DNA of 63,142 bases, the filler included, from Hausera hauseri (taxonomy: Eukaryota), in the NCBI GenBank assembly GCA_046269625.1. It is 10 parts of 10 records of this genome, joined end to end, with 100 filler letters (N's around TTAATTAATTAA, not from the genome) between each part and the next. Parts side by side here need not be neighbours in the genome. Positions count along the whole stretch, not along the records: positions 32,838 to 37,070 come from JBJURY010685661.1; 9 more parts are not named here. One strand, written 5' to 3'. Of this stretch, positions 2,121 through 37,070 are shown one piece after another (within the stretch, counting starts at the first letter, position 1; each line of letters begins with the position of its first letter). Under the pieces are notes generated by a model. It was not told where the DNA came from, ran no database searches, and worked only from the letters and a program-made list of their open reading frames with translations. A program made the position numbers and the translations under genes.

Positions 2121-2286
2121 TTACATCAACAAAAACTGCTGTCAACCAGTGAGGTTATCAGTATTAGACTGCAGAATGGAGCGAGTAAGAAGATCGATTA
2201 CAGACATCCGTCAAAAAGCGCCAAGCAGATTAGATTCGATGAAAACCAGACGACATATAACGAATTGGTGGGCTTGTTCAAAGAGT
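1577..2286 (+). repeat. ~710-bp dispersed direct repeat (partner 11493-12211)
   Basis: Colinear, near-identical sequence from agtgatgttcataatgacattcaatcc to ttcaaagagt at both sites. Upstream flanks differ, and the second copy runs into the contig end. Confidence 0.95.
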
Positions 2287-2952: not shown

Positions 2953-5900
2953 AATGGACTCTTCACCCACCGTTGACACCACTAACAAAACTACCTCTAA
3001 AACATCACATTTTGCTTTTGACCAAAAATCGTCGACCGTCACGACGCCATCTACTTTCACTAGCTATACATCTTCCACCCCGCCAGCCAAACACACTTCT
3101 TCTCAATGTACGGAGTATTTTATCGATTAGGAAAAATTCAGCACAACGTGGTTCAGCTTTCACAAACTTTGACTGCAGTCTAATAACATTACTGATCCCT
3201 AGCAAAAGCTTATTGTTTGCTTTGTCTCTTACCAAACACAGTTAAGTCTTTTCTTCACAACATTTTAGACATGTTTCAAAAATCAAACCCGTACACACAT
3301 CTCTATAACGCAGTCTTAAAATTTACTGAACCGTCTATAGATTCCATAATCCATAGATTCTTTAATGATAATGGCATGGGAACACAAAAGCCTTCTAAGT
3401 TCCTGCGTACGTCGTTGGCTCACCTACAAACATTCAGTGTAACTAGGCAACATAATTCAGACCTTCTGCGACGATATTTCTTAAACGTGTTATCTATACA
3501 AATTACAGCTCTCCTTACCGTTATCAAGGAATCTACAGCATTGGATAAATTGGCGTAATTGGCTGATAAAGCACATGAAGTGCTACAATTAAATTCCCAA
3601 CCAATTGTATCAGCAGCAGCCAAAACAAGCGGCAATCAACTCAGTGCAACAATAGAGCAACAATTGAGCCAATTATGCGCTGAAAATTTAGCACTATAAC
3701 AGACAATAAATAAAATAAACAATAGGTTGAACAATCTTTCATTACCACGACGAAGTGTTCCTATTCATAATCATACTCGTTCTCTCTCCAAAAACAGGTC
3801 ACCATCACCTACACGATCTTTTATGTGCCATTATCATAGAAAATTTCATAATAAAGCTAATAAATGCTGTTTAGGGTGTAGATATTACACTCCAAATTTA
3901 CATTCAGACAAGATCGTTTGCACCATGCAAAATTTGAATTCCACGCACAGAAACGTCTTTCAGGCTGCAACTATAAGAACAACGCTAAAAATACTACCGA
4001 CAGACGTTCTATTTCTCTTGATAATAGTCGGCCAATCTCACCATTCCAGAAAAACTAATTTCGCTGCCAGTACTCACGGCAGAGTCTAACAAAGGCAACT
4101 TCTCCAATACTACCTGCCTACACACTTCCTTTTCAGTCTTTACACTAAAGGCTTCGATAACCACACAAACAACTCAATCCTTAGATTTCCTTATCGATAC
4201 AGGAGCCGCGGTTTCTTTGCTACCGCCCACTTTCCCTGTACAAAATTCACCATTCAAAGCAAAATCGTTATTTACGGCTTCAGAAGAACAGCTAGACATT
4301 TCGGGTACATGTAAATTGTCGTTCACCTTACCAAACTTTTAGCCCACGTTTCATTGGATATTTACCTTCGCTAACGTCCGCACAGCAATCCTACATTTGG
4401 ATTTCTTGTCGCACTATAATCTTTTAATTGATTGCAAACAACAGTGTCTAAAACTTAACACTACTGGACATCTTGCCGAGCAGATAAATAGTATCTCCCC
4501 TAAGGCGCAAACGATCTTCCAGCGGAAGCCTATACTCAAAAATCCTGTAAGTAATCCAAATCCCTTCAACCAGCACTTTTCATTTCGTAAATTTTTTAAC
4601 GATAATGTGGATATTCAGTCGAGATTTGGTTTTGACAGCTAGGTTTGTGTTGGTTCAGTACATTGTCTAGACAAAATTACCTCTTAAACACTATTTTTAA
4701 TACTACTATCCTACATAAAATTTCCCTTGATTTCAATAACTCGCAAACATCACTCGTCACCGCACATATTGACTCAACACCATCGCCATCACCCAACCTC
4801 TCGCAATTGCCTGCAAGTCTACTGCAATACATACACACTTCATATCCCCGCTTAATACAGAAGTACCGAAACTTCACACCTACAAACAGCACTTTTCATC
4901 ACATTATAACGCAACATCAAGGACCTATTCGTCGAAAGGTACGTCCACTGTCACCTCGTCGTAGGCAAGCTGTCGAAGCGGAATTTCTAAACCTTGAATG
5001 TTCCGGCATTGTACGAATATCTAAATCGCCGTGGTCTTCGCTTTTACACGTTGTCCAAAAAAGATGGATTATTCCGACCATGCGGTGATTACCGTCAGCT
5101 AAACACTTTAACCGTTATGGATGCATATCCTTTACCATTATTTAAGGATATCCTACACCGGCTCAATTCAACCACAGTATATTTAACCATAGACTTAGCC
5201 AAGGCATATCATCAAATTACTGTAACACATGAGGACATCGAGAAAACTGCAGTTACGACACCTTTCGGACTGTATGAATACATTTATATGCCTTTTGCTT
5301 TACGCAACGCTGCGCAGACTTTCCAACGTCACATCGACTTCGTCCTCTCGGATTTCACTTTTGCGCATCTATATATCAACGATATCTTGATTGCTTCGTC
5401 TTGTACCAAACAGCATGAGGAACACCTTTGTTTCATTTTTAACGACTTAACCGCCACAATTTACAAATTAATTTTACAAAAAATGTCGCTTCTTCCGAAA
5501 GCGTATTAACTTCCTCGGACACATCATTTCAGCAAATGGTCATTTTTCTCAGCCAAAACGTGTTAAAGCTATCAAAAGTATACAACTACCACGAAGAACA
5601 ACAAAAATGAAAAGTTTTTTGGAAACTTTGCACTTCCTTCACAAGTATGTGCCGTATTACTCTGAACTTACCGCACCATTGGCTCATTTAAGTGGTGGCA
5701 AAAAACATCAGCAAATTCAGTGGACACCTAATCTGGTTGATAAGTTTGATAAGCTACGCGAAGGAATTAAGACCGTCGACATTCTCGCTTTCCCCAAGCC
5801 TGATGCGGAACTCATCCTTACTACAGACGCTTCAACTGCTGTGCTTTACCAAATACACAAAGGAGAAAATCAAGAACTAAAATTTTTTTCTCGTAAGCTA

Positions 5901-7871
5901 ACGTCCCCTGAGACTCGATATTCAACGTGCGATCGAGAATTATTGGCCATAGTTCTCGCTCTAAAGCATTTCTCCCAACTACTTGTCGCTCACCGTTTTA
6001 CCATACAGACCGATCACAAGCCCTTGCTAAACATCATGACTATGAAACATCCTTCTTTACGCCAATAACGACAGATCATATCTGTCGACATTTAACTTTG
6101 ACATATTTATGGGGTTAATAATTTGGTTGCCGATTTTCTATTTAGGACGGTTGGTTTGATTAATTTTTCACCAGTCTTTTGTCAAGTACAACTCCAACAG
6201 AACCAGCCACCTCAGTATATGCTTAGTTCTTTTAAATTTTACACATTTATTGACGGCGTGGCTTTAAACACTTCTAAACCAGGTCATTCCTTAATAATTC
6301 TCGCACCACCTTTACAACGGCAAGCGTTTAACAATGTACATTCACTGCACCATCCTGGTGCTAAGGCAACTTTTCGCTTACTCCACCGACAAGTATTATG
6401 GCCGACTATGCGTTCTGATGTACAAGCGTGGGTTAAGGAGTGTGTGGCTTTCAAGAAATTTAAAATCACCAAACATCTGAAGCCACCACTATATCATTTC
6501 CCTTGCACATCACGCTTCGAGTCAGTTCATGTTGACCTAGTTGGCCCTCTTCTTCCTGACAACGGTCATCAGTTCATTTTGTCCATGATGGATCGTTCCT
6601 CACTTTGGCCAGAAGCTCTTCCACTACGAAGAACTAACACGGACATAATAGCCGACTTTTTCATATGCACTTGGATCAGCAGATTAGGATCCCCTAGATT
6701 TATTTCTACAGACCAAGGTACTTAGTTTGAGTCCAATTTGTTTAAATCTCTCGTTAACCGATTAGGAATTAGCCATATACACACATCACCGTATCACTCC
6801 CAATTGAGTGGTCTTCTAGAGAGATTTCACAGAACACTAAAAACGTCACTGAGATTTCTTGCAGAATCCAATAGCAGTTGGACTACTATTCTTCCGCTGG
6901 TTCTTCTGGGTTGACACAACACCCCTTCTATTTCTACTGGTTGTTCACCTACGGAAGCCCTCTTCGGAACACCTATACGTCCATTATTGTAGTTAACTGC
7001 TTTGGAAGACATACTTACAGACGAAGCTACTCGAACGGCACAGGACCATTTTGTCTCAGTCAGTAAATATTCATTCTGCAGGATAAAAATAACAACAATA
7101 CGTACCTACCAGAGGATTTATACTTGCAAAGTGCGTCTGGTTAAAAACCAGACGCTGTGCGGTTTTCAACGACGGAATTTGGGCCTTACAGACTCGTTCA
7201 ATTGCATTCCGACAATGCTATTATATTTAAAGACGGCACGGAACTAGCGGTGCATATCAACAACGTAAAGCCTACTTTTTTCGTTGATGATGCCCCTCAA
7301 ATAGAATCTTCCACGCCTATTCTGACTCTACCGCCTTTTGCCTTTCAGTTACTCCAACCACTACCACCTTCCCCATCCCAAACCCAACACCTACCCCTTT
7401 ACTAGATCCTACTCCAAAAACCCGTTCTACTAACCTACCCACTTTTCTTCCCTTTTCACTTTCATTTTCCCCTCCAACCCATTCCTTGTCTCTGAAAGAT
7501 ATATCACCTCCAACGACGACGTCCGACATTGTTTTATCTCAATCAACTTGTCAACCAGATTCAATTAAACTAAAAAGCGCAAATTCGTGTCATTCAGTAC
7601 CTACAGTAAAGATATTAAACTTACAGGGGTACAACGTCTTATTCACACAAAAACCTCCTAGATGGCCTGCACTGTTCAACCACATTTTTCTCTTTTCTTA
7701 CCCTATAATCTCTTCTTTGCCACGGGGGCATAATGTTGTGCCTAACAAGAACTTTTATATACTCTGTTTTGTTTTCTCATTCGTTGTTATTTGTTTGTAA
7801 TTCTCGACGAATTGATACGCTTCTGCTGTCTGCACCTCATCGTGCCAAAATATCTCATCAGGTCCACAACA
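2953..7871 (+). mobile_element. Decayed Ty3/Gypsy LTR retrotransposon (gag-PR-RT-RH-IN, 3' LTR)
   Basis: Gag has a CHYHRKF..ANKC..GC motif. Protease FLIDTGAAVS (~4190); RT RPCGDYRQLN, IDLAKAYHQI, MPFALRNAAQTFQ, YINDILI; RNase H TTDAS..DRELLAI..TDHKPL; integrase HSLHHPG..ECVAF, VHVDLVGPL, STDQG. Many stops and frameshifts. No 5' LTR is recognisable. Confidence 0.95.
7734..7871 (+). repeat. Putative short 3' LTR (138 bp)
   Basis: Starts TGTTGTG and ends CACAACA (7-bp terminal inverted repeat). It follows a G-run (acgggggcataa) downstream of integrase. Confidence 0.65.
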
Positions 7872-8789: not shown

Positions 8790-10520
8790 CTCAGTCGTAG
8801 ATATTTACTTGAAATTATTAATCTTTGTCGTCAAAAAAGTAATTGGGCAGCTTTACTTAGTCCGCTGGAAAATGTATTTTCATCTAAAGTCTTTCCAAGA
8901 GTTTTCTTTATGATTTCAGTTTTGATTCCAGTGAGTCTGATGGTGATAGTGAATCGGTAGTTGAAAAAGCTGACTGAAAACAGGTAGAAAGAACAAATAA
9001 TCCGTCCCAGTTCTCATTTTTATACCGTCGATGTTAACAGTGTTCGTAAAACATTCAAGACCTTATTCAGTCTCAATGATGTTGATTACTTTACGAGTAT
9101 TCGAAAAGGATTAAATCAGCTTGTTCAAAATATTAAGCGGAACAGCGAATTTTACAATCGAGAAAAACCATTTGAAACAATGAATTTTTAATCATTTTAT
9201 CTGTAAATCCCTATCTAAGCGATATTTAGAAATTCGAAATCATTTTACCGTTGGTTTGTGAAATTGTTCCATTGCTTCCGATTGAAGCTCAAGCTGAATT
9301 AACGGAAATTTTAGCGGAAAATATTTAAAGAGGGCAATCGATTATTGCTGCTCCATCAAGCCTTACAGCAGAGAATTACTTTGAGACGTCTTACGACTGA
9401 ATACGATTCAACATATGTTTTGAATCAGGATCGAGAAATTATCAATACGGAGTATACGATTGAATGTGTTTATTATGCAAGTATACTGGACGGTTCAGTG
9501 GACTCGGTTGATCAATTGGAGTCTGAACGAGAGTATAATAAAAGATAATCAATGAACATCAATCATTCCAAATCACGATACCATAAGGACATTGCAAGTA
9601 TCTTGATGATCCCTGCCATGGATTGTCGATTTCCATTAATTCTGTACGATGGTTTTATTAACGAAACTCTAAATGAAAATGTCAATATTGAAAATGATTA
9701 CGTTTGTTACAAGGCTGGGAAAGACTTCAGTTTTGTCAAATATTCATTTTTACTCAACACCAATACGAAACGAATTCCTTTGTTTTGCAATAGAATTCGA
9801 ATGCGTGCCGATTATTCGGAATCGCCATTTTTGTCTAATCTTATTCATAGTCTCTGAAAATTATCGTTGATAGAGATAATTTGGTTGATGATACATTGAA
9901 TGCGCTTGAATATAAAATTTCCAGAAACTTAGACAACTTAAATAAGCGCCTTTACATAGAATTTCGAAATGAAGAAACTGTTGACGAAGGCGGTGTTAGC
10001 AAAGAATTCTATCAGTTGATTTTCGAAAAGATTTTTAATCCTGATCATGTAATGTTTGTTTTTAATGACGAAACCAATTTATTTTGGTTCAATCCATTTC
10101 TTATGGAAGACATGTCGCGGGAATTGAAATTGATTGCTATTATTTTGGGATTTGCCATTTACTTCGGTGTTACACCGGATTTGAAACTACCTCCTGTTTT
10201 ACATAGTAAGTTGATGGGGAAGTTAGGGAATTTCGAAAATTTAAAAATTACTAATCCGAGTTTGGCCGTTGGACTTGAAGGCCTCTTAGAATGTGATAGA
10301 GATATGGTAACCAGTGTTTTGATCAAAATTTCGAAATAGCCGTTAAAGATTCCTTTGGTAATATTGTGATAAAAAAACTTAAGAAAAATGTTAAAAGAAT
10401 TTCTTTAAATGGAGACAATAGAGAATAATTCATAATGCTTTACACCGATTACTTATTGAATTATTCAATCAAGGAACAATTGAATGCTTTCTATGAATGC
10501 TTCCAAATGGTAGTTGATGA
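8790..10520 (+). pseudogene. UBE3A: UBE3A/E6AP-like HECT E3 ligase, intronless, truncated before the catalytic C-lobe
   Basis: Colinear segments resemble E6AP: LEIINLCRQKSNWAALL..VFSS; LQQRITLR; DCRFPLILYDGFINETLNE; FSFVKYSFLLN..NRIRM; LNKRLYIEFRNEETVDEGGVSKEFYQLIFEKIFNPD; LYTDYLLNYSIKEQLNAFYECFQMV. Multiple stops; homology ends at ~10520. Confidence 0.92.
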
Positions 10521-11492
10521 GATCCCTAAAAATACATCAACTGGATTATATTTTGGTTTACCTAGGACATTAGTGGTTTTAACTGAACCCATCAAAAAAC
10601 ACTCAAATGTCACAAATATCGATAAAATGCTTTTGATGTATCATTATTTCACCCATAAAGAATTCGATTCATGCCAGTGGCTTATTCCAGAAAATTCTTT
10701 GATCCATGAAGATGACAAAATCACCGTTATAGAAAAAGGAGATGATGTGCTTATTCATCTAGAAAATCCAAGATTTGATGAATTTCAAAAATTTACTATT
10801 GACAATTTGAAAGTAGTTGTAGAACAATCACTTCTAGATTTCAAAGATCAACTTCAAAATGATATTCCTGAGAGAAAAATTATATCTGGAAAACAGACTG
10901 ATAAGGATAATGCATTGGTACATATAGTTCATAGACGTCTGAGGGTGTTACCAATGGCTATAAATGCTTGGCGGAAAATGACATTATCCATCCGAATGTT
11001 TCCAAATCTATTGGCAATAAGCAAACTGATTTAAGTAAAAATACTGATGAAAACAGCACTCTGTTGGACAAAAAGGTCATTGACATTAAACTTCCTGATT
11101 ATTTATGTTTAGCTTTGATTTTTATATTGGAATATGTAATTACTGAAACTATGTTTGATCCAACAATAAAGCTGCAATATGGAACGACACGTTCTTACCA
11201 ACAGACATATCAAATTCGCTATGCAGCCTATGAACCATTCACTCATAATTTATCATCTGAGACATTAAAAGACGGAATCCGCTTAGAATTTGAACTTGTC
11301 GGAGGTGCTTTTCATGCACCTGAACACTTTTTGTTGTACAAAACAATAGACGCAGACAAAACATCACATGAGAATGTCGAGCTCTCGGCAAAAGCAGATA
11401 CTATAATGAGGCTTTCAGCAGTATTTAGTGAAGATATCTTCAAACACAAAGAACCGCTCACTGCAATTTCTAATGTCACTCAAAGTAGTGCT

Positions 11493-12045
11493 AGTGATGT
11501 TCATAATGACATTCAATCCAATTTTATTTTGTTCCTATCCTATTCTCGTACCGATGAATTAAGTCGTTGGTTCATTTACTAAAAAGTTGTTTCGTTTGAA
11601 TATTGCTTTTCTACACACCAAAAAGTTGTCTTTAAACAGTTCCTCAGAGATAACAAAATTGACATGAAAATTGTCAGCGATCCTGTTGTCAAAACTAAAC
11701 ATTCAAATATAACCAATGTGTTACACAGAGTTAAATTTCAAGCAGTTACCGATTTGACTAAATCATGCAAAGTCTATTCGAATAAAGGATTTGCATATAT
11801 TACCGAAGATGAACTCGTCCATTATGTAGCAACGGAATTCCGCAAACACATGTCTCACAATTTCTTAATTTTGTGCCTGAATTGGTCACAAGCCGAAGAA
11901 GTCAGTCGTTTGAATTTTTTGTCCACTATTGACAAGACGCACTTTGGTAAGGATTATTCCCAGACGAAAAAAACTAAAAAAAATTACCGCTAATCATATA
12001 CCTTCATTGAGTAAAACTTCTTTTCCGCGATGGATGCAGCTGTTG
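11493..12045 (+). pseudogene. PRIM2: DNA primase large subunit fragment, copy 2
   Basis: Paralogue of 1577-2120 (DIQSNFILFLSYSRTDELSRWF; SLSKTSFPRWMQLL) with independent stops and frameshifts. Confidence 0.85.
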
Positions 12046-12211: not shown

Positions 12212-12311
12212 NNNNNNNNNNNNNNNNNNNNNNNNNNNNNNNNNNNNNNNNNNNNTTAATTAATTAANNNNNNNNNNNNNNNNNNNNNNNNNNNNNNNNN
12301 NNNNNNNNNNN
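12212..12311. other. Artificial contig-joining spacer
   Basis: N44 + TTAATTAATTAA (stops in all six frames) + N44. The same spacer occurs at 16272-16371, 20791-20890, 25303-25402, 32738-32837, 37071-37170, 47536-47635, 54362-54461 and 58875-58974. Confidence 0.98.
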
Positions 12312-12917
12312 CTGTATCACATTCTTTATTGTAGTAGTCACATTCAAGAAATGTCATCATTTTAACCGATTATAATTCGAATAGAACATCATTCTCTCAA
12401 TTCGATTTGATATCATTCGATGGCTACTACATTGCCCAAAATTTCGTCCTTTATATTGTATGATTCTCCTTTACAATATCCTGTTTTATCAATAGCTCCA
12501 GCGGCAAAAATTCTTTTGTTAATGACTTTTCCTTTTTGAGCCTTGAACCGAATGCTTCCAATATTGAATTGTTTAGTTACAAATGCTTCTACACACCCAT
12601 TTGCTTATCGGAAGTCGTTCGAAAGGAGTGGTTAGTTCTACTATAGCCGAATTTCTGTACCAATAACCACAAATAAAGTTAAAGTAATTCTTTCGCACGA
12701 AACATTCACTTGTTTTTGCAAATTCAATTCTTGTTAAACCTAATATTCTTTATTGGATACTGTAGTTAGTGATGCTTGATTGGCATGTGGACATTTTCTA
12801 GATCTAACAGAGAATATATTGGACCTTCTTTCGCTTGTCTGCAATCATAGGCAGTGATTGAAAAGGTTCTTGCCACGAGGTTAAATAGTACAAATGTGTA
12901 TAACTTTAATTAACCAT
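12312..12917 (-). pseudogene. N-terminal part of a class III (chuvirus/gB-type) fusion glycoprotein, env-like
   Basis: Manual minus-strand translation across frameshifts gives a hydrophobic leader LYTFVLFNLVARTFS, then ITAYDC..IYSLLDLE-C, ECFVRKNYFNFICG, IFAAGAIDKTGYCKGESY..GNVVAIE and ECDYYNKECD. The cysteine pattern fits chuvirus-like G (GYDC..SLLDV.EC; LAG.ID.DG.C.G..Y). Not present in the ORF track. Confidence 0.75.
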
Positions 12918-13179
12918 GATAAGTCGAAATCTGGCCGTTGATTTCGTTGTCATTCTTGCTGGTGAGATGGAGTATTTTCTGTTGTCTCTGAGTAAAAGGT
13001 ACCGATTTTTGTATTGTTGCCTGAATCAGAATACTAATCCATCCACCTCTACACTACGCATCCTTAGACATTAACCTTCAATGCTCTTGTGGCAATTTCT
13101 GTTTCTTTCTCTCCTCTTGGTTTGGATTTACACCATTCATTACCGTTATTTTATATGAGATAGGACATAGCTGTTACGA

Positions 13180-15345
13180 TTTTACTTCTTGTTATACCAG
13201 TTTCCACCATTCTCGACAGCATATCTCTTCTGTATTTTGTTTATTCTCTCGTCTGTAGGAATATCGGCAAATTGCTCACTCATTTTTGCTATTTCATTCC
13301 TGATGATTTGTATTATTGAGTCTTGTATTTGTAAATTGGTGTTGAACTCAACGAATGCATTGTGCATCCTTGCTAACAAGGTCTGCAATAATGTTGCTAA
13401 TGGTTCATTACCTGCATCATGTTCATCACCCGTTGTTAGTAATTTTCGATCAACGTCGTCATCTCTCGCTTTTCTACCTTTTAATTGATAAAGTTTCGTA
13501 GTTCCTTAGGGTCTACCACGATTCCTTTTATCTGTCTGAATTTGCTCTGATATTGAAATATTCGTTTCAGCTGTCTGCTGATCTTCATAATGTAGTTCAG
13601 CTTCTTGTATCTCCTTTTGTTTAACTTCAGTAATGATTTCATCAATTTTTTATGCTCGGATTGTCTAAAATCATTGCATACTGGGTTATATCTACTTTCC
13701 CACATACCTACTTCATATACGGTTTCGTAATCTAATAGGGTTCGCCCGTAGAGACGTAATTCCAATTCCTCGAGGTTGGATTACTTCATTGGTTTTGTTT
13801 CAAATCAACTATCGTGTCCAACGACTTCATTCTTATGACTTGAAAATCTTGATTATATTGTTGGAGAGTAACTATTACTTTGGAGTTTTCTCTGACCGTT
13901 CTTACTCTATATGCATACCGATAGATTATGTCTTACGACATTCTGATATGGATTGTGGCCAGCAGCATATACTAACATGTTTATTAAATTAGCAAACTGC
14001 TTATGGCTAATCGTAGGTGACAATAACATCGAAAGATCTTATCTGAACTGAGTGCCATTAATTAATTCTTGATTGGCATAGCTCAATACTTTTCGGACTT
14101 TTTCCATGCCATCTTGGTCTAAATGTATAGATGAAGTTTCCACTTGTGATGGTTCCTTCACTTTCTTCTTATCCTTTTTATTTTCTCGCTTGGCTCACTT
14201 ATCACTTCCAGAAGGTGAGTCTGATTCGGGCGTTCTTAAATCCTCTTGTATAAAAGGTTTATCTTTTGTTTTGACCTTTCTCTTCTCAGTATCTGATTCT
14301 GCTGCAGGACTCTTTTTAGGTCTGCCTACTGGGGCAATAATCGAACTATCGTTGTTCATTTTGTGCCTTTTCTCACAAACTTGTTGCTCTTTTAACTTCA
14401 GATATAGCTGCTTTAATTCAACCACATTGTTTTCGTTATGTCCTACCATATTGGTTTTGCACTATTTCGATTTAGCTCTAATCTTTTGTTGGAGCTTTTC
14501 TACTGTATCTTCGTGTTCATTGTGTCATGTACAGTACCAAGTATATCAGCTTTGTTTTTCTTTGATTGTCCTTGCTTAGCGCATGAGCGAGCGATATGTC
14601 CATAATTTTCACAAGTAAAATATAATGGCTGTCCATCTTGATTAACCAGTGGCTTCCTCACTGCAGACTTTGAGGTTGACTTTACCCAGTAACATTCTTT
14701 TGCTCTTGCTCTGGTCTTCCGAAATTTTTGGAACGGCTTTTGAAAATTTTTCTTTTGCTGAAAATTTCTCGGTTTCTTATTATCTTAGGGATGCTTCTTT
14801 ACATTCTCCAATCGTTCATAATTGACTTCAATTTTCCTAGCTTTACTGACATCTTCTTTATAAGTGTCAGGATCAGCAACGATAATATAGTTTTGGATTT
14901 CTCTGTTTATTCCGTAACAGAACTGAGCTAGGAGAGCATCTTATATCTTCATCTACGTTCGCTCTCAGCCAAATTCTGCAGGGCACATGTATACTCTTGC
15001 ACGGTTTCGTCTTTCCTTTGACGTCTCCTGTTGAATTTTCCAATTCGACCTTTTTCTGACGGGTCTACTGTGAGCCTTTCCTCCAGGGACTCCTTAAGAC
15101 TATACCAATTGGATTTATTCTCATCTTAAACTTGTGTGTAAGCAATAAGTGATATACGTTTGAGATGAAGTGGAAGTCGTTTTATCCTAAGCTCATCTAT
15201 CCATCCGAAGCTCTCTGAATACATCAAGTAATGCATTAGGAACTCACCAGTCCTGATCCGGTTCTCCTTGAAACTTATCCATGGGCAAGACTATCGTGCC
15301 ACTTAGGTTGCTACCTAAGCTGGCTCCTAATCCGGAACTAGACCT
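13180..15345 (-). pseudogene. Decayed Gag polyprotein with CCHC knuckle and ubiquitin-like domain (paralogue of 35014-37070)
   Basis: SSGLGASLGSNLS start; SEKGRIG; degenerate knuckle ..CENYGHIARSC; ELKQLYLKLKEQQVCEKR..PVGRPKK; UBL VTLQQYNQDF..MKSLDTI..ELRLYGRTLLDYETVYEVG (~13675-13885). Confidence 0.88.
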
Positions 15346-15478
15346 CTGTAGATTTCCTTCTATTTTGGGGATTTTCTGTATCTGATTCGGATAAACTTCT
15401 ATTGAATCTGTTTTTTCCGTTATGATAGTAGCGTGTGCTTTACGCTTATTTCGTCAGTTGTACAACGCCAGCGTGCCT

Positions 15479-15495
15479 CCTCACTCGGGGCACTA
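15479..15495 (-). promoter_or_regulatory. Primer-binding site, elongator tRNA-Met type (one mismatch)
   Basis: The minus strand reads ..ttaaCA c TAGTGCCCCGAGTGAGG, upstream of gag. It matches 34867-34883 apart from one base. Confidence 0.8.
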
Positions 15496-18217
15496 GTGTT
15501 AAGTTTTGAAGTTAGAGACGAGTTTGCGTCTCGCGACCTCAAACTTAAACTTTATTTATTCGCTTAAATAACAACCTGTGGGGTTACTAGGCTGTTTATT
15601 TAGGTTACATGACCTTAATGTGTAAGTTTGGCAGAGTCAATTTGTAGCCATCGTCCTTTCTTTTTCATTTTTCTCGTCAGAGTGATAGTTTCAGCGTCGA
15701 GAATTGATTCTGTGGAGCTGGCCATAGGTAATGATTTCCAATCAATATAACAGTCTTTTAATAGCTACTTAACGAAGAGGGTATCTGAATTGGTGTCGAT
15801 GTTTGATTAATGGGTATCTGTATAGGCACCTGAACTTGATCCTTACACGAAGAGACCGTGAAGTCTGGTATCGTGGTTTGTCTGTCGGATATAAGTATTG
15901 ATGTGTCCATATGTTCGATTGAATATTTAGAATTTCCAGTTTTAACGTTAAAGTAATTCAATAAGAAACGTGCAATTTATATTTGATTAATTGAAAATCT
16001 AGAAATTTAAATTTTCGAATAAATTATAATAATAAAGATCTATTTAGTATGACATATTTTGTTGAAAGTGATAAATTGAGAATTTAATGATTGTGAATTT
16101 AAAATATTGTATTTGCGATGATAAATTGGTTGAACAATTCATATTCTCAACATTACGAATTATTTTTTTGTTTTAATATTTCGGGCAGGGAATATATGGT
16201 TGTATACACTTTGCTGGTGAACTGGTGAATAATTATACGGAACATAAATGGATAAAATATATGTAGTATTGNNNNNNNNNNNNNNNNNNNNNNNNNNNNN
16301 NNNNNNNNNNNNNNNTTAATTAATTAANNNNNNNNNNNNNNNNNNNNNNNNNNNNNNNNNNNNNNNNNNNNTGCACATTCATATACTGCACCATGTTTGT
16401 GTTCGAATGCACCCGGTCACATGTCCTAATCATCAATATTGGAAATATTGGAAATCCGATATTATTGATTTTTCTCACTTCCACATGTGCAGTGCCCCTG
16501 CACTGTCACCAATCGATATGCACTGATGTGCACTATCGATTAGCACTTTGCCCCGGTCGATTCGATCAATACTGCACTGTGCAGCGATCGATTTGTGAAA
16601 TCTGCAAAAACGTGCCTAGCAACGGTGCCTAACCACACGGTTGCCTAGCACACTACCGATCGACAGTGCACCATATGCACCATCGATTGGCACATGTGCA
16701 AAATTGATTTATCGATTACCCCCTGGATGGGGGTGAGAGACTTCCCATTTCTCCCTATTCCCATTTAATTAATTACTGAAGGTTAATAGGTTTAGAAAGC
16801 ATTGAATTACAAGATGAGCAATTATTTTATAATTACAAGTTTTATAGTAGACTGGCTCCTAAATGCTATATCATACAGAAAACGGTAATAGATTATATTC
16901 AAATAGAATCATATTTAAAAAGTATAATAGAATTATTGATAGCTGTGCAGGTTGATTAACCTTTTGTGCTGTCCACTGTTTGTTAATTTTATATGATGGG
17001 AGTTAGATCTGTGATACCACACGAAACACAGGTTGGACTTAAATACTGTTGATATGTTATCAAATCATAACAAATACCATTATTTAGTAACTCGTATAAT
17101 ACTAACGTATCTTTATTTTTTCTTTTGTTTTTATAAGAGAAAATCTCATGTAATACGAATCGTATTAAATTTTATTTCACTTTTCAATTTTATTAAAATA
17201 TTGAATATGATTGTTTTTCTGTAAACCAGTGAAACGCTATTTTTCTCGTCGTGTTTTATTTCACTGATATTCAAATATCTTTAACCGAACATTGTCCTAG
17301 TTATTACCCAGTTTTCCATTTCATACGATTTCCGATTGGACAGCTCTGAGAAATATTGAGCTTGTTATGTTAATTTTGTCCTGTATTATAGTTAAGCCAA
17401 ACATTTTCTAATTTCGACATTTTGACATACAATCATTTGATTCTTTATTGAAAACTGACATAAATATTCCCAAATAACATTGTAGACATTATAATTTGTT
17501 ACGTGGAGAAAGAATAACATCGATAAGAAAGTGTCATCTAGATATTTCTGCTGCTCAGTAATCGTTCGTGTACTTCGAATAAATGTTAAAATAATCGATT
17601 ATCTAATCAACAATTACTCGAGAGCATAAAATTCAAAATTGGATTGATAGAATAAGAATTGAAAAGTAGCTAACGAAATCATTTGAACTCAGAAAAGTTG
17701 AATTTCGACTTGAATAAAAACTTTATGCTTTATGTTTTTAAAATAAAATCTTCCAAATGCCACCATATACACCTGCAACATGAAATAGTTTATTTAAGAG
17801 CAATATTAAACCATTTAGATTTGTGATTTACATCTATCCCTTTTAAATAAAAAATGATTACTATTTATGTAACTACTTCAGCAAATTCAAATGATATATT
17901 GATTGGAAATTCATTTAAAATTTGTATTTGAGGGAATGATGAGATAATTTAGCCAACGGATAAATTATGATTATTTGGCATTTGGTGATAAATATTTCTG
18001 TATAGTAATCAGACGTATTCCTTAAATTATTTTTATTTCATGTCACTTTGATAATATTTATATAGGAAAAAATTTCTTCCGTTTAAATTAGACGAGAGAG
18101 AATAATGATGCTTCAATAATTGAACTTATTTAAAGATGTTATTTATTAAAGTTATTTATAGATATTAAATGTTATGGTTCTGATTATACGAACATGTTTA
18201 ATGTTGATTTATTTCAG

Positions 18218-20790: not shown

Positions 20791-20947
20791 NNNNNNNNNN
20801 NNNNNNNNNNNNNNNNNNNNNNNNNNNNNNNNNNTTAATTAATTAANNNNNNNNNNNNNNNNNNNNNNNNNNNNNNNNNNNNNNNNNNNNATTTAGTTTC
20901 AACATGAGGTGGAAATTCAGCTTACTTGTAAGATTTTTCTTCTATAA

Positions 20948-21790
20948 TTACGGAGATACCTTGTAAGTATTTCTTAAGGTAGTATAGGCATGAAGTTTTA
21001 CCGGTATCGGGGCATTATTTACTATCCTGAAAGGTACGCGGCCTGTACGTATTCTTGTCAGTATATTGCTGAGTATTATGTTTAGATTCAATGTTTCCTT
21101 AGGTTCAAAATATACCTGTTGATCGTCGTTTTGCTGAATTTGCGCATAGATTATCATCTCTGTTCTTGGTGGAATGTTTTCATTCACTGAAATCCACAAT
21201 TCTCCAAATTTCCTATCTTTAGCCCTTTTTATGCCTTTATTTGTTCTGATTTCAATTCATTTCCCCGTTTGCAGATCGATTGCTATATTTGGTAGTCTTT
21301 TTAGTAGAACTACGTCGTCGGTCAATAGTTCCATAACCGCAAACTTGTAGTGGGAAAACTTTCAGACTATTTGAACTTCCGGGTTTTATTTAAACACTGA
21401 TTTTGACACTTGGCCAAATGCTCCTGTGCTTCTGGGATCTCCTGTTGACGGCGAATATAACTTGTTTCTTAATGTTTTAGGAATCGAATCATTTTTAACG
21501 TAAGATATTTCGGAACCTGCATCGATTAAGGCATATACCTCCCAATCATCCATGATGATTTTGGCGAAAGGCCTACCTTCTATTACTGTTCCAAAATAAT
21601 TTGATGTGATCATTTGGCGCTTTATTGTCGATATTTCATGTCCATTAATTCGGATTTCCGGAGGGGATACTATATTTTCCGATAATCCTCTCAATTCGCC
21701 GTTTGGATGTAGTTTTTTATTTTCGTTGCTTACTTCTTCCGTCTCATGGCTGACGATCAGTTGTTCTCGATTGTTAGTGTGCGATTTCAT
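20948..21790 (-). pseudogene. Retroelement aspartic protease and post-protease spacer (start of pol)
   Basis: GRPFAKIIMDDWEVYALIDAGSEISYV (D[T/S]G-type site reading DAG at ~21512-21523), then STGAFGQ and the Gypsy-type spacer IPPRTEMII..FEP..GRVPFRIVN..PVKL. Confidence 0.8.
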
Positions 21791-21954
21791 GTTTCAAAAA
21801 GTTTCTATTCTTCTGTCTTCCCAGACATGGACCCGGTCCGGTCTCTATATTTCGAGGTTCCTTGGAGAGTACAAAATTCTGGGATCATTTCTAGACGGTT
21901 GGTAGCACATTTTTTGTAAAATTCCATATCGTTTCACTCCTTTATAGGGGTCTT

Positions 21955-23580
21955 CTATATTAAATGTTCTTTTATAGATTTTGTCTGATAATAGCTCGTT
22001 GATTGCTTATTGCAGTCTTCGTAAATAGGAGCGATAGGGGGTAGCATTGGCAATGGTGCTTTAATGACAGAGTATGTTTTATGTCTGTTTGTTCCTGGAA
22101 GTACTTTTCCTGCCTTAGGCTCGTTATCATCTGAATTATTTCTTCGCGTATTAGGCTTTGTAAATTTCCGCTTGTACAAAAACATAAGCCTTCCCTTTCA
22201 TTTACAATTATACTATCCGACAAGGCGTTTTACGTCCGATTTCCATCTATTTTCTTTGCATGCCCGGTCAATGTAAATATTTCATGGCCATTTATTACTG
22301 CTTGGATGACTGACTTAATAATTTGTATCCAAAAAATATATTGCTAAGAATCTGGATGGGGCTTGGCCAAAAATCAAAAATCTTCCTCAAATTTTGTAGA
22401 GTATTTCTGTGGTGACTCGCTGATAATGATTTATGCCAAGCACGGATTGCCATTTAGTCTGATATCGAGTATTGTCTACTACGAAGGCCAAGGCTCGGTT
22501 TAATTCATGTGTCCCTTGTCGCGGAAAAGCGAAAAATTGTCTGAAGGCTTCAATTTCCTTAGGTCTATATATGCCTTTTGACGAGGTGTCTTGAAATTTG
22601 TCGTCTGTAATTCATTTTGCAAGATTTGTTCCTGTTAAGTTATTTGGTGCGGCAGCAATACCTCCATTTGGCAAACTAACCCAATCCGTTGCACTACGTC
22701 TAAACATGAGTTCTCCTAAGCTTGCTTTGCAATATTGAAGGATTGTTGGTTCAGTTGCATTGTCTAATAGCACTCTAGTGAGTGGAATGGCTAACCTTGG
22801 AATATTCTGGTAATTAACGGGAAGTTCCTGCATGTAGCGTTTTTCTTCAACTTTGATTGGTACATTTCTTTTTTCACAATCGTAAGTCAATAGTAATTTA
22901 CCGGTAACTCAACCAAAAATTCCTCCTCTCATAGAAATTATTGGGGATTCCAACTCGGGATTAGCGTAAATAAGAGCCATTTTTGTCCTCATGATTTCCA
23001 TATCCAATTTACAATCATTTGTTATCATTTTATGATATAACTCGGTTATTCCGACTTGCCCTTTGTAATAGAAGTAATTGTCTCTGTTTTTCAGATAATC
23101 CTCAATTCTGGTATCCTGCGTTTCTAGTTTGTAAATCTTTGCATTTATTTCTGTTTCTGCGACGAAAATGCCTCATTGTTAGTAGCGAACATCACTACTT
23201 CACAACGAGAAATCATTTTTTTCTTCATAAATTTTAGTCCATGCTGATCAGAGATTAATATAGTGGGCGTAGGATGTTCGGATACGTCTTCGCGTGTCCT
23301 TGAGTTGGTATCAGATTTATGCACATATCGCTTTCCGGTAGTTTCATTAAACTTTAATTCCTTAATTTTGATAAAATTACAGTTTGTTCCAGAAGGAGGT
23401 TCCCAGATTATAACAGAACTTCTAAAAGCACAGGTTCCGTCTTGTGAATGACATTTTTGATTCTCGGTATATAGTTTGGTGACACCATGGAACATTACTT
23501 TCTGTGCTCGCATTTATGATTCATAGAAATCCACGACCACTACGTTTGCTTGTAATCCTTTTCCGGTGTCGTATTCCGCT
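21955..23580 (-). pseudogene. Central and C-terminal part of a class III (chuvirus/gB-type) glycoprotein, env-like
   Basis: NVVVVDFY; CHSQDGTC..SVIIWEPP..C; C..EIMRTKMALIYANPE; LLLTYDC..VPIK..ELPVNYQN..PLTRVL..C; KGIYRPKEIEAFRQFFAFP (compare the chuvirus-G GIY..DL..LR..IMFP motif); hydrophobic segment at ~22310-22380. Several stops. Confidence 0.78.
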
Positions 23581-25402
23581 CCGCTACAATGTCCGTTTAG
23601 AAGTCTGCGCCTTAATGCAGGCCTTACCTCTGGCCCACCGCATAATAGCGATAAAACAATAAACTAAAAAGGACATAAGACAATTAAGAGAAAAAACGGA
23701 GTAATGGTCACAACGTTTATTGTTATCACAATCGCTGTTGGCCGAGTTCCTCGAGGCGTACGAGGCGTCCGTGGAGGATAATGCCCGGCCATTTCGGAAA
23801 CCGCGGCGTACACAGGTCGGAACATCGTCCGAATTGGAATCGGTTGACGTTGGTTCAAGTCTTATCGGCTCCAGCCGGCGTCGACGGCGCGGTACGGGAA
23901 CTTTGTCCGGGCTGGAACTTACTGTCTTAGCCTGCGGTTTGTCAGCGGTTTGACAATCAGGAATCAACTGGCCCTCCGTTGGAGCCAGCGATTTGTAGAG
24001 ATGGTCGGCGGCCACCATCAGTCTTAAGAAGACCGGCAAGAGAACCGACGAGTCGAAGAGACGTCGATTTTCGCCGTCCTCGTAGAACCGATGGAGCGTT
24101 GCCTCCGGTAGAGCGTAACGGTCGTCTCTCTCCAGCCTGACTAAATGCCGCATGAAACGGTTCCGTTGGAGCAGCTCCAGTACCGTCAGAAAGTTCGAGC
24201 AAGACCGGGACGGGACTCGCTTGTCGGTGTTGCGATGTCGTTTGCCGCGTGGAACGGTGTTCCGCCGGGTTGTGTGCTGCCGCTCTTCTTCTCGACCTTA
24301 TTCTGGTGAGGCGACACGGCTATCGGTGTTGTTTTCCGCTTCGGCGTGTACTGGTTGGAGTACCTTGGGAATACGGTACCTCGGTGTTGATATGGTATTC
24401 CTTTAGCCAAAGGTGGCGTTGGATGGCCTTTGTGTCTTCCCCGACGATTGCTTCGCCGGGTTTTGCTGTTCAAGTCGCGTGCGTTCCCGTTTCAGCGCTG
24501 TTTTTCTGTTTTGCCGTCTGGTCCTTTCCCCAATTTTTCAGTGTTTCGGGCATAGTAGTTTTCTTTTTCTTTTTGAATAATTTTCTGTTTCTTAAAACTG
24601 TGGATTCAAACAAATGGATTTGAATCCGCAGATTTCGATTGTTAATTTTGTATTATTATTATTACAAGTGCTGATCACTTCAGCACTCGTAATCCCTGTT
24701 TAATTTTTTTGTTTCCTATTTTTGTGCTTATTTGGGATGAATTCGTGATTTTACATTGACATTTTCAGGTTACCCGATTTTCGTTATTCATTTGAAATGT
24801 TATTTGCTTGTTTAATTAAAGGTTTAATTTTTCGTCAGCTTCTTTTGTGATATTTTTGATCAACATTCATTAGGTAATTAATGGGATATTGAAACAGTGA
24901 AAATGGAGTGATATTATTGTTTTGTAAATTTTATTGGGTTTGTGGATTTTAAATTTTATTTTAAATTTTGTTGTTAGTGTCGGAATTTATTTAACATGTT
25001 TGGTATGACTTATATTTGTTAATGCTTGAATTTTGTAAGGAGAAGTTTTACAGTGGGTTATGCATGTTTAACCTTCCGACCACTACCCTGTATGCCCTAA
25101 TTATCTTCCCTGGTTGCATTTTAATTCTNNNNNNNNNNNNNNNNNNNNNNNNNNNNNNNNNNNNNNNNNNNNNNNNNNNNNNNNNNNNNNNNNNNNNNNN
25201 NNNNNNNNNNNNNNNNNNNNNNNNNNNNNNNNNNNNNNNNNNNNNNNNNNNNNNNNNNNNNNNNNNNNNNNNNNNNNNNNNNNNNNNACAACACCACCAA
25301 CANNNNNNNNNNNNNNNNNNNNNNNNNNNNNNNNNNNNNNNNNNNNTTAATTAATTAANNNNNNNNNNNNNNNNNNNNNNNNNNNNNNNNNNNNNNNNNN
25401 NN

Positions 25403-32440: not shown

Positions 32441-32953
32441 GTGGTTCAGGTTCGATTATTTATTATATGATGTGCATTTTACTGATATCTGTGTATTTTC
32501 AGCCAACTTTTATTCTGTTATAAAACGTAAAATATACATTCCTTTTTGGGGTGCCAGTAAGCATTAATAGATTTTACATTATTTCTTATGGAAATAGCTG
32601 ATGTCCTTCACGAACAACAAACTTCTTCGTTTATGAAAAGAAGCCTTTAAGAATGAATCAAGTTCGTGAACCGAGTCAGTAACACATGCACCGAGAATGT
32701 CATCCACATACGACATCGTTCTTCCAGCTCCCAGAATNNNNNNNNNNNNNNNNNNNNNNNNNNNNNNNNNNNNNNNNNNNNTTAATTAATTAANNNNNNN
32801 NNNNNNNNNNNNNNNNNNNNNNNNNNNNNNNNNNNNNTAAAGGGACATTTGGCATTCCAACGAATTGGTCTCCTCTTTAAACTCCAGACAAGATCAACAA
32901 ACCTTTCGGACTTGATAAATATATAAACAAAAACGCTTGCCATCTATATCTCG

Positions 32954-34108
32954 GTGGCAAAAGAAAGAGTCCAGCTGAAAAGCAAATCACTTTCTACCGG
33001 AATCACGGATACAATGGATATTACAGAAGCTACAACAATTCGTCTAGATCCTCGTCTATATACAAATGTCGATGTAACCCTTCGGATATATGATACACCC
33101 TGCCAAATAATATATGTAGAGGTAATAAAAAAGGAAAATATACCTCGAATAACTTACGAAATTGAAAAATATTTTACACCAAGGCCCAAAGAAACCGAAG
33201 TGGAAAAAGGCCTATCCTTTTTAAGGAGACCAATCCAATTTAAGTCAGAAATCGTAATTATGGCAATCAATTCGGTATATTTAATGACCCCTATTAGGAG
33301 CAAAGAAATGACATTAGTCGAAATAACCCTGATAGATATAGAGGGTAATATTATAAAGGATGAAATCCTAACCCCAAGAGAGAAAATAAACAACTACAAT
33401 ATCCATATTACTGGTCTAAAAGAAGCTGATATTGTGGGACAAAAAAATTCATATGAAGAAGAACCTCATTTACTGAAAGCAATATTTGGGAAAGTAATAG
33501 TTGGCATCGATGTATATCATATGCTTATAACCACTCTCAAATACGATTATAATTATTTTCTTGGCATCAGAGACCTATTGCATCATAAAGAAATTAATCC
33601 CCAATTGGAATATACTGCAAAACAGCTTCTCATGAAATATAATGATGGTGCATATCCTCAAAAGACAAAAGATAAGGCCTTAACCATTCTGAAGATTTAC
33701 AACACTATTTCAGAATATAAAAATGAACACTTTGAAAATGGTACCACGTCCATGGAAATCCAAAAACCAGAATTAACCAAACAAGCGCTTATCCAGACAG
33801 TGCCTATGCAGGCGGTATCCGCATGTTTAAAGACCCAACAAATATCATTCCAGTCGACAATTGATCAATTAATGCCAAATCGGTTAATGCCTAATGATCA
33901 ACCGATGTCAGCCTCGACTTCAACTATGAAAGATTGTTACATAGATCTAAAACCCTTAACACTAGCCAATTCTACGGAATCTATTTTTGTCGACCTCACA
34001 AAATCATGGAAAAAAAAGGAAAATCCCAAAATCAGAAACGATCACTTTAAAAAGGACGATGGCTTCACATCAAATCTGTCGATTATCAAGATTCAAATGG
34101 GACAATAG
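32954..34108 (+). CDS. Retroelement 3' accessory ORF with an inactive REXO4/ISG20-like DEDDh exonuclease fold
   Basis: IVIMAINSV..LVEITLIDIEGNIIKDEILTPREKINNYNIHITGL..FGKVIVGIDV..IRDL..TAKQLL..KALTILKIY parallels REX4 (VAMDCEMV..ARVSIVN..GN..D..VKP...V.DYRT..SGI..GRILVGH..RDT..L.K.LL..DARA.M.LY), but the catalytic acids are missing. The ORF ends 35 nt before a PPT. Confidence 0.72.
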   Translation: MAKERVQLKSKSLSTGITDTMDITEATTIRLDPRLYTNVDVTLRIYDTPCQIIYVEVIKKENIPRITYEIEKYFTPRPKETEVEKGLSFLRRPIQFKSEIVIMAINSVYLMTPIRSKEMTLVEITLIDIEGNIIKDEILTPREKINNYNIHITGLKEADIVGQKNSYEEEPHLLKAIFGKVIVGIDVYHMLITTLKYDYNYFLGIRDLLHHKEINPQLEYTAKQLLMKYNDGAYPQKTKDKALTILKIYNTISEYKNEHFENGTTSMEIQKPELTKQALIQTVPMQAVSACLKTQQISFQSTIDQLMPNRLMPNDQPMSASTSTMKDCYIDLKPLTLANSTESIFVDLTKSWKKKENPKIRNDHFKKDDGFTSNLSIIKIQMGQ

Positions 34109-34120
34109 AAGCCTACCCTC

Positions 34121-34154
34121 TGATGCTGAGGACAGCATCATCTAAGGAGGGAGG
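34121..34154 (+). promoter_or_regulatory. Hairpin plus polypurine tract
   Basis: TGATGCTG-AGGA-CAGCATCA perfect 8-bp stem, then AAGGAGGGAGG directly followed by TGT. Confidence 0.7.
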
Positions 34155-34865
34155 TGTCCAACACAATCAGTACGAGCTGAAATAAAGTAAATAATCGAGA
34201 AAAATAAACAGAATTGAATTACCTTACAATCACTGATCGATTAACAAATTGATTTTTGTTTTTTTTTGACTCTCCATAAATTGAAACTTGTTATTTCTCC
34301 TTCTTTGTAAATATAGTTTTATTTATTCGGTACAAATTGGTGATTGTAAAATTAGTACATATACTGATATGATTTATGTCAACCTACCACTACATAGGAT
34401 TAGAACTTTTGAACTGTTCGTACCGAAACTTTTATGTCGTACATAGATAATTGTGAGTAGCTTTATTTTTTTTGTTTCTTATCGTACTTTGATTTATACA
34501 TTTATTACCAATTAAAAGATTTATATTCGATTAATTTTCTTTTTAACAAATTTAAATAGATCATAATACAGTATTGAATAGGACAAATAGAATTCAACTT
34601 AAGGGCCCTGTTTGGTATACCGTCCCTTCAGGACGGTTGTCTAAAATCTACTAATTAAGGGGGAGTAACGTCGGTGTACCTCCTTACGAAGCTCACTCAC
34701 TACGACCAATTAAATAAAGTAGTATATAGATGTTGGCAAACCCACAGGTTGCTGATTACTGTTAAAGTAAGTTAAGCTTGAGACAAAGAGAGAACTCAAG
34801 CTTCTGAGTAAAGAGCATAAGTTTAAGGTCGTAAGACCAATAAACCTTAGACTATAAACTTATCA
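34155..34865 (+). repeat. Putative LTR between PPT and PBS (left boundary uncertain: 34155 or ~34664)
   Basis: TG follows the PPT at 34155 and CA at 34864-34865 precedes the PBS. The 3' part (cccacaggttg..aaactta[t/a]cact) is shared with 15495-15585 on the minus strand. Confidence 0.55.
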
Positions 34866-34866
34866 C

Positions 34867-34883
34867 TGGTGCCCCGAGTGAGG
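34867..34883 (+). promoter_or_regulatory. Primer-binding site complementary to the elongator tRNA-Met 3' end
   Basis: TGGTGCCCCGAGTGAGG is the reverse complement of CCTCACTCGGGGCACCA, the 3' end of invertebrate-type elongator tRNA-Met. It lies ~130 nt upstream of the gag ATG. Confidence 0.85.
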
Positions 34884-35013
34884 AGGCACACTGGCGTATA
34901 ACACGCGGTAGAGAGTTAACGCTACTAATACCATTTCAAGTACTGATTCGGCAAGGAGTAGTTCCAAATTAGACGAAGATTTCAATCCTCATATTACAAA
35001 TCAGAATTCCGAT

Positions 35014-37070
35014 ATGTCCTCAGGACTTGGACCAAGCTTAGGTAGTAACCTAAATAGCACAATCGTGCTATCTATGGACAAGTACGAAGCCAAACCGGAT
35101 CAAGATTATAGTGAGTTCATCATGCAAAATGAGATGTACTCAGAAAGTTTTAACTGGACAGATGAGCTCAGGATGAAGCGGCTCCCTCTTCACCTCAAGG
35201 GTATAGCACTTAGTGCTTATACACAAATCAAAGATGACGAAGACAAGGCTGATTGGGCTAGCCTTAAAGACGCCCTGGAAGAAAGACTCTTAGTAGACCC
35301 ATCAGAAAAAGGTCGAATCGGAGAGTTCAACAGGCAACGTCAAAGAAAAGGCGAAACCGTGCAAGAGTATGCATGTGCCCTTCAGAAGTTGGCTCAGAGA
35401 GCCTATGTAAATGATGATAAAAGGGAAGATGCCCTCCTGGCTCAGTTTTGTTACGGAGTTAACAAAGAAATCCAGAATTACATAATCATCGCCGATCCGA
35501 GTTCATATAAAGAAACCGTTAGCAAGGCTAAAAAAATTGAAATCAATTATGAAATACTCAAAAACATAAAGAAACATCTTAAAAGTGATGATAAAAAACC
35601 GAAAAATTTCCAACAAAAGAAAAATTTTCCTAAACCGTTTTATAAAACTCAAAATCAAACGGAACAACAGCAGAAGAAGTTTACATGGCAATAAGATCAA
35701 TCTCAAAAATCTGCGATGAGGAAACTAACAATTAATCAGAATGGACAACCATTATGCTTTGCATGTCAAAAATATGGGCATATGGCTCGTACCTGCCCTA
35801 ATCAAGGACAGTCAAGTCAAAAGAAAAAGAATGTCGATATAGTAGGTAATATATCTGACACGGATAATGAACACGAAACCACAGATACAGAACCAGAAGA
35901 AACGATTGAAAAGCTACAACAAAAGATCAGATCCAAATTAAAAGAAAGTAAAACCAATACGATAGAAGAGGAAGATAAGATAGCTGAATTAAAACAGCTA
36001 TACCTTGAATTAAAAGAGCAGCAAATCTGTGAGAGAAGACAGAAAATGAACGATGAAAGTTCAATTATTGCTCCTATTGGTAGACCCAAAAAGACTCCTG
36101 CATCAGGATCGGATGTTGAAAAGAAAAGGGTCAGAAAAAAAGATAAACCTTTGATACAGGAAGAAGAACTGAAGACTCCGGAACTTAACTTACCTTCTGG
36201 AAGTGAAAGTGAAAAAAGTGAATTTAGTGAAGAAAATAAACCCAAGGAGAAGATAAAGAGAATAAGGAAAAAGAAAATTAAGGAAAAATCCACAAGTTAC
36301 GAGTCTTCCGTTGATTTAGACCAGGATGGCCTAGAAATAGTTCGGAAAATATCCAGCTATGCCAACCAAGAACTAATCGATGGTAATCGATTTAGACAGG
36401 ATTTGTCTATGTTATTATTGCCAACAATTAGCCACCAACAATTTGCCAATTTATTGGATCTGTTATTAATATAATCGGCTGGTGCAAGTCCATACCAGAA
36501 TGTTGTACGATATATAATTTATCGGTACGCTAACAGAGTAAGGGCCATTGGAGAAAATCCTGAAGTAACGGTTACTCTCCAACAATATAATCAAGACTTC
36601 CATTTTCTTAGAATGAAATCGTCGGATACAATAACTATATTAAAACATAAAATTAACGAAATAAGCCAGCTTCAAGGAGAATTAGAGTTACGCTTCTATG
36701 GGCGATCATTAATGGACTATGAAACTCTATATGAGGTAGGTATTTGGAAAAATCGGTATAATCCCGTGTGTATTACTTATAGACAGTTTGAGCAAGAGAT
36801 AATCGATGAAATTATTACTGATGTTAGGCGAAAAGCAATACAAGAGGCCGAACATCAATATCAGGTGCAACCAGTAGAAGCCGGAGAGAATATACCTATC
36901 TCAGAACAAATACAAACGGATAAAAGAAATCGTGGAAGACCAAAAGGAACGACGAAACTCTATCAGTTGAAAGGCAGAAAAGCTAGAGATGATGAAGTTG
37001 TTCGAAGATTGTTAACAACGGAAGATGAATATGATGTAGATAATGTATCATTGGCAACATTACTACAAAC
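35014..37070 (+). pseudogene. Gag polyprotein: capsid-like domain, CCHC knuckle, charged linker, ubiquitin-like domain, AT-hook-like motifs
   Basis: ORFs 35014, 35716 and 36613 share one frame, split by two TAA codons. Motifs: RQRKGETVQEYA..QFCYGV (Gag), CFACQKYGHMARTC, PIGRPKK, UBL at 36559-36783 (VTVTLQ..RMKSSDTITILKHKI..LRFYGRSLMDYETLYEVGI) and KRNRGRPKG. Confidence 0.9.

Follow-up and report, generated by a model that had tools for sequence, protein, structure and literature searches.

The locus considered here raises the question of why the Gag frame of a retroelement should carry a ubiquitin-like domain (UBL) and motifs resembling AT-hooks, and whether these would serve budding or attachment to chromatin. 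It lies in a 63,142-nt stretch of DNA from Hausera hauseri (GCA_046269625.1), here called the window, with a GC content of about 35%. Since N-TTAATTAATTAA-N linkers (for example at 12212-12311 and 37071-37170) connect the short contigs that make up the window, contigs on either side of a linker are not genuine neighbours. The element under study (copy 1) is on the contig 32838-37070 and its Gag frame (35014-37070, plus strand) runs to the contig end. Judged from sequence comparison, the UBL appears real and selected, one of two AT-hook-like motifs is credible and the element seems to be an enveloped relative of Burro-type gypsy elements. Copy 1 very probably belongs to a compact Ty3/gypsy element of Burro type (Gag-Env-first), now decayed and likely of flatworm origin; no contig joins this family to a pol gene, and all of them end inside or before Env.

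A tRNA primer-binding-site-like motif with a TGG start (34867-34884, plus strand) precedes the Gag frame and is shared, at 15494 on the minus strand, with a second copy (copy 2; 12312-15506, minus strand) that contains many stops and frameshifts. The copies are 71.6% identical over 2235 aligned bases, which on the copy 2 side run from 15506 to 13381 (minus strand). Copy 1 has an in-frame TAA at 35692-35694 (break 1) and a second at 36472-36474, inside the helical domain described below (both plus strand); since the two sit between capsid and UBL, copy 1 cannot make a capsid-UBL fusion. The copy 2 UBL is broken by frameshifts and stops, with a further stop directly after the RGRP motif. Both copies are dead. 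Behind its AT-hook-like motif (hereafter the hook), copy 2 has a decayed Bcl-2-like region (about 13380-13100) and a class III Env (about 12870-12312). Its pieces match residues 542-993 of the related protein P0002, and copy 2 therefore once had a P0002-type continuation past the hook. The Bcl-2-like part is seen in copy 2, in P0002 and in L001, the contig of a more distant relative (P0004), and not in copy 1 because the copy 1 contig ends at 37070. A 393-aa ORF (32927-34108, plus strand) that matches an ISG20-like exonuclease (phmmer E 4e-4) directly precedes the copy 1 primer site. The DNA ahead of the copy 2 primer site contains a decayed homologue of the C-terminal end of this ORF (15955-15650, minus strand; tblastx E 8e-10), and the ORF is possibly an accessory one in or beside the terminal repeat.

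The Gag frame has a Ty3/gypsy-type capsid domain (35071-35658), for which the close relative P0003 gives a Ty3_capsid match (E 0.0036) and profile A2 a match to the Drosophila Arc2 capsid (E 0.008). There follow a single CCHC zinc knuckle (35755-35796; Pfam zf-CCHC PF00098, E 1.7e-4), a K/E-rich linker (35809-36309; 38 K+R and 36 D+E in 167 aa), a four-helix domain of 80 residues resembling a HEAT/TND-like bundle (36310-36549) and, directly after it, the UBL (36556-36792), all on the plus strand. The helical domain is kept in P0004, where 16 of 74 residues are identical. The preliminary description had read CCHC knuckle, K/E-rich linker, UBL and RGRPK in one Gag frame. This order stands, but the frame is not open, being cut by the two TAA codons, and the helical domain before the UBL had been missed, as had the Bcl-2-like domain and in-frame Env found behind the hook in copy 2 and P0002.

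A protein search returned two matches, P0002 and P0003, among 7997 scored candidates. P0002 (1130 aa, 69% identical to the copy 1 frame) is known as a protein, and its continuity as one ORF is read from the protein sequence: capsid, UBL and RGRPK come first, then a region weakly similar to Bcl-2 (E 0.055), and last a fusion protein of class III (PF24664, E 6e-19). Its single hydrophobic peak (residues 784-803) comes after the Bcl-2-like domain and just before the mature Env start at about residue 808. After residue 189, P0002 has about 53 residues fewer between capsid and knuckle than copy 1, copy 2 and P0003, which is either a deletion or a gene-call artefact. P0003 does not extend as far as the UBL. 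When residues 383-807 of P0002 were used in a full HMMER search, one more protein emerged, P0004 (E 1.5e-9), which is 35% identical in the capsid and 23% in the helical-UBL part (about 20-35% overall). Its contig L001 encodes capsid, CCHC knuckle, linker, helical domain, UBL, KRGRPRK, Bcl-2-like domain, one in-frame TGA, a signal segment and Env, with Pfam matches to ubiquitin (E 3.4e-5), the Bcl-2-like domain (E 0.017) and Env (PF24664, E 7e-43). The TGA (L001 3058-3060) stands between a Gag-UBL-Bcl-2-like ORF of 997 aa and the signal segment plus Env (402 aa, with no stop up to the contig end), and represents either decay or programmed read-through. Many diverged pieces in three public runs cover the whole region, while 36470-36985 is missing from one low-depth contig of run X1; further scans for relatives beyond the three proteins and these runs were without match. 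The Env of the family is of class III (gB-type) and sits behind Gag. Its in-frame position in P0002 and the decayed Env behind copy 2 agree with the earlier suggestion of an enveloped element.

Against Pfam ubiquitin the UBL (piece 36559-36795) scores E 3.6e-5 and 23.9 bits, just under the curated cut-off of 25.4 bits. Of the solved structures, polyubiquitin matches it best (E 0.0014), and the best sequence-profile matches are ubiquilin, Rad23, UHRF1 and the ISG15 C-lobe (E 0.007-0.05), with no single donor family prominent among them. A beta-grasp is predicted, at low confidence, in the P0002 model (pLDDT 48-62 across the UBL), but the model of the window's own copy reaches only pLDDT 29-48, and no match by Foldseek came up to E 0.001. 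Profile and model, each weak alone, together point to a real ubiquitin fold of beta-beta-alpha-beta-beta-alpha-beta type. The lack of a C-terminal di-Gly noted previously is confirmed, there being no Gly-Gly anywhere in the copy 1 Gag frame, and a UBL of this kind is not expected to be a conjugatable modifier. In the HMMER alignment to ubiquitin RLIFAG pairs with ELRFYG, which puts Arg at the Ile44 position of copy 1; the same column holds Arg in copy 2, His in P0002 and Val in L001. The loss of this column also argues against Rad23/ubiquilin-type proteasome docking by the UBL.

The UBL is found in all four sequences that span its place (copy 1, copy 2, P0002 and P0004). Comparison of copy 1 with copy 2, broken codons excluded, covered 621 of 685 codons and gave an overall dN/dS of 0.16. 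The capsid stood at 0.15, the helical domain at 0.10 and the UBL at 0.13, the last from 77 of 79 codons with a bootstrap range of 0-0.28 and a dS of 1.4, near saturation. The UBL was therefore under purifying selection equal to that on the rest of the frame, and no more. Identity between the copies is 68% in the UBL versus 73% in the capsid, so the domain is no better kept than the remaining frame. A UBL conserved in the diverged copy had been placed at 13675-13885; a homologous domain is indeed present at about 13640-13890 (minus strand), but it is cut by frameshifts and stops.

AT-hooks, which bind the minor groove of AT-rich DNA, have an Arg-Gly-Arg-Pro core with basic flanks, and the bipartite nuclear localisation signal (NLS) has the consensus KK-x10-4 of 5 basic residues. 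Both GRP motifs of the frame had been described as AT-hook-like, and the two fare differently. KRNRGRPKG (36922-36948, plus strand; RGRPK at 36931-36945) has the core and the basic flanks and would qualify as AT-hook-like, with Pfam AT_hook at E 0.045 and 14.1 bits, under the cut-off of 17.4. The distant relative P0004 carries KRGRPRK at the matching place; Pfam AT_hook gave no match to this L001 motif. RGRP[RK] occurs once each in P0001 (the copy 1 frame), P0002 and P0004, with shuffle P values of 0.0006, 0.0012 and 0.0022 (5000 shuffles), and is not a matter of chance for the copy 1 composition. From the hook to the BH2-type GGW of the Bcl-2-like domain there are 161 residues in P0002 and 162 in P0004, whereas the hook-to-UBL distance differs about twofold. 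Since its spacing is fixed to the BH2-type motif and not to the UBL, the hook seems to move with the membrane-side module. PIGRPKK (36073-36093) fails as an AT-hook: the residue before GRP is Ile or Val rather than Arg, there is no Pfam AT_hook match at E<=10, and the motif is not kept in P0004, where it aligns to PIGKLY. Its KK opens a bipartite NLS-like pattern that is completed by KKRVRK (36073-36138, plus strand) and lies at the same place in all three close proteins (P0001, P0002 and P0003); 5-11% of shuffled linkers also yield such a pattern, and P0004 lacks it. PIGRPKK would thus be better read as half of a bipartite NLS than as an AT-hook.

We propose that in this decayed Burro-type element, likely of a flatworm, the UBL is integral and non-conjugatable and, together with the helical domain, is likely a docking site for host proteins and not an ESCRT-recruiting ubiquitin mimic; on balance we consider this proposal probable. 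That the helical-UBL unit has the putative role of an accessory adaptor is a claim on which we are evenly divided. The order capsid, CCHC, linker, helical domain, UBL, RGRP hook, Bcl-2-like domain, hydrophobic signal and Env is seen in P0002 as one ORF and in L001 with the single TGA interrupting it ahead of the signal. This hydrophobic stretch may act as an internal Env signal peptide, in which case Gag and the accessory part would be cytosolic and initially anchored at the ER. HCV core is anchored by the E1 signal in this manner, according to the available text of PMC5402940. Signal peptidase would release Env, and the element's protease, which in Burro lies downstream of Env, would separate the accessory part from capsid and nucleocapsid. 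Host pathways of protein turnover and cell death could then be the targets of the helical-UBL unit and the Bcl-2-like domain, and the released piece might reach the nucleus and bind nucleic acid by means of the NLS-like motif and the hook.

Several other readings of the UBL must be weighed against this adaptor proposal. Engineered Gag-ubiquitin fusions were reportedly made by Zhadina and Bieniasz in 2010. It had been suggested that the UBL is a natural counterpart, imitating ubiquitin within Gag and taking over the task of a late domain by recruiting ESCRT. The premise that ubiquitin fused to Gag can replace late domains is borne out by the available part of PMC2958808, provided that Leu8 and Ile44 are present; the fused ubiquitin there lacked GG, so the missing di-Gly is no obstacle. 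No PTAP, PPxY or YPxL-type motif occurs in P0001, P0002 (residues 1-807) or P0004, the UBL would sit between nucleocapsid and membrane anchor, and L001 has Val in the Ile44 column. What weakens the suggestion is that the published activity needed Leu8 and Ile44 (PMC2958808), whereas in the Ile44 column the two window copies have Arg, and P0002 has His. Mimicry through the Ile44 patch is therefore unlikely for the family, and we think ESCRT recruitment by the UBL very unlikely. That the domain is a neutral passenger or a chance resemblance is exceedingly improbable: its Pfam scores are sub-threshold, both window copies are dead and the X1 contig skips the region, but the low dN/dS, the presence in every spanning sequence and independent ubiquitin matches at about 20% mutual identity speak against it. 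The conservation of the UBL largely refutes this reading.

Chromatin tethering, in which the NLS-like motif and hook bring a Gag piece and the integration complex to AT-rich chromatin while the UBL docks a chromatin factor, would accord with the recurrence of RGRP[RK] in three proteins beyond shuffle expectation, with the NLS-like pattern in the close proteins and with the GC content of the window. We nevertheless regard it as improbable, as there is a single hook with a sub-cut-off Pfam score whose spacing follows the Bcl-2-like domain rather than the UBL, and the NLS-like pattern also comes up among linker shuffles and is missing from P0004. Another unlikely account, compatible with the adaptor proposal and not exclusive of it, is a structural one: a matrix-like layer built from helical domain, UBL, hook and Bcl-2-like domain would hold the capsid to the Env signal anchor, giving ER particles without a classical matrix or late domain. 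The single-ORF anatomy of P0002, the hydrophobic segment found only after the Bcl-2-like domain, the analogy to HCV core-E1 (PMC5402940, available text) and the helical-UBL spacing kept at about 20% identity all point this way; against it, L001 has its TGA directly ahead of the signal segment, which would separate Gag from the anchor if the stop is natural, and particles are not described in the literature searched on these elements. A bolder combination, which we also hold improbable, would make helical-UBL unit, hook and Bcl-2-like domain the minimal Burro-type core: a matrix substitute chaining the capsid to the Env anchor at the ER or nuclear envelope, in a flavivirus-type polyprotein assembly where a membrane-anchored Bcl-2 grips chromatin by the hook 161-162 residues before its BH2-type motif.

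Other parts of the window hold further mobile or virus-like sequence. At 20891-25128 (minus strand) a decayed class III Env of a different subfamily (27% to the P0002 Env) is followed by a retropepsin-like stretch (RVP E 0.12), an Env-before-Pol order from another subfamily in the same window; a further stretch there looks dUTPase-like. At 737-3245 and 9851-11993 (plus strand), primase large-subunit-like pieces (E 7e-9 and 7e-8), duplicated at 90%, and fragments of a HECT ligase (E 9e-10) lie on either side of a Gypsy-type pol (4991-6725) that has decayed. A compact ORF series at 40715-46612 (minus strand) includes two RING-like ORFs (E 4e-4 to 6e-4) and stretches that by eye look like ankyrin repeats and an exonuclease, and looks virus- or giant-transposon-like. 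A long T-rich low-complexity simple repeat at 47636-54361 gives rise to spurious long ORFs.

That gypsy elements of flatworms combine a UBL, a Bcl-2-like domain and an in-frame Env was already published in 2019, with no functional test in the literature searched. Planarian Burro/GYPSM1 are giant gypsy-like LTR retroelements (Arkhipova and Yushenova 2019, PMC6431247) with CCHC knuckles in Gag; their BCL-2 is preceded by a Ubi2/SUMO-like domain, and Env lies in frame after Gag and ahead of the protease, dUTPase, RT, RNase H and integrase of Pol. The same paper, in its available text, suggests meddling with host apoptosis and ubiquitination and has no mention of an AT-hook. The UBL is not an extension private to this Gag: it is part of the published Burro-type accessory region. 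What is already known is the layout of UBL, Bcl-2-like domain and in-frame Env; what is new is the compactness, the conservation of the hook and the loss of the Ile44 column, the last two not found in print in the literature searched on Burro-type and flatworm gypsy elements. These two are small additions, and the late-domain idea becomes directly testable on the isolated domain. The family reduces the Burro-type layout to about 800 residues before Env, with the same layout in a second lineage at about 20% identity; a compact layout kept at such divergence points to the helical-UBL unit, one hook and the Bcl-2-like domain as the parts that matter.

Comparison with known systems places the family close to several of them and apart from each. 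Burro/GYPSM1 share a Gag with CCHC, a UBL ahead of a Bcl-2-like domain and a mononegavirus-like/class III Env in frame, but have two to three knuckles where the present family has one, an Env deep in an ORF of 4,900-5,100 aa where it here starts from about residue 808, and a Ubi2/SUMO-like domain where the best Pfam match here is ubiquitin and not PF11976 (PMC6431247, available text). Pfam found no MATH, BIR, ankyrin or Smc match in the P0001 pieces, P0002 or P0004; since neither this cargo nor the giant ORF was encountered, the family is a Burro-type relative and not Burro itself. BURRO1 RNA is under PIWI control, and particles are not mentioned in the accessible part of that report (PMC8532177). 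Flatworms, nematodes and bryozoans carry GAG-ENV-POL elements with gB-type Env, according to Chary and Hayashi (eLife 2026, PMC13524379), whose main text does not contain the words ubiquitin or Bcl. Among the 230 rows of their Env table, VYQES and TGES of P0002 appear in three Schmidtea rows only, though gaps elsewhere could hide matches. Smed_errantivirus_1-3, of the HSV/gB-type GAG-ENV-POL group, resemble the present family in having Env after Gag, and, by eye against the supplement rows and for Env only, in the cysteine positions of the Env ectodomain and the runs YYVYQES, ELRE and TGES; no primer-binding site is listed for them in the part of PMC13524379 seen, whereas the present family has a primer-binding-site-like motif. 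The integral UBLs of ubiquilin, Rad23, UHRF1 and the ISG15 C-lobe are the nearest by profile, but the present UBL comes without a UBA or other partner domain. The engineered Gag-ubiquitin fusions share with it a ubiquitin fold without di-Gly behind Gag, but depend on the Leu8/Ile44 patch (PMC2958808, available part), where the present UBL has Arg or His in the Ile44 column and is an internal domain.
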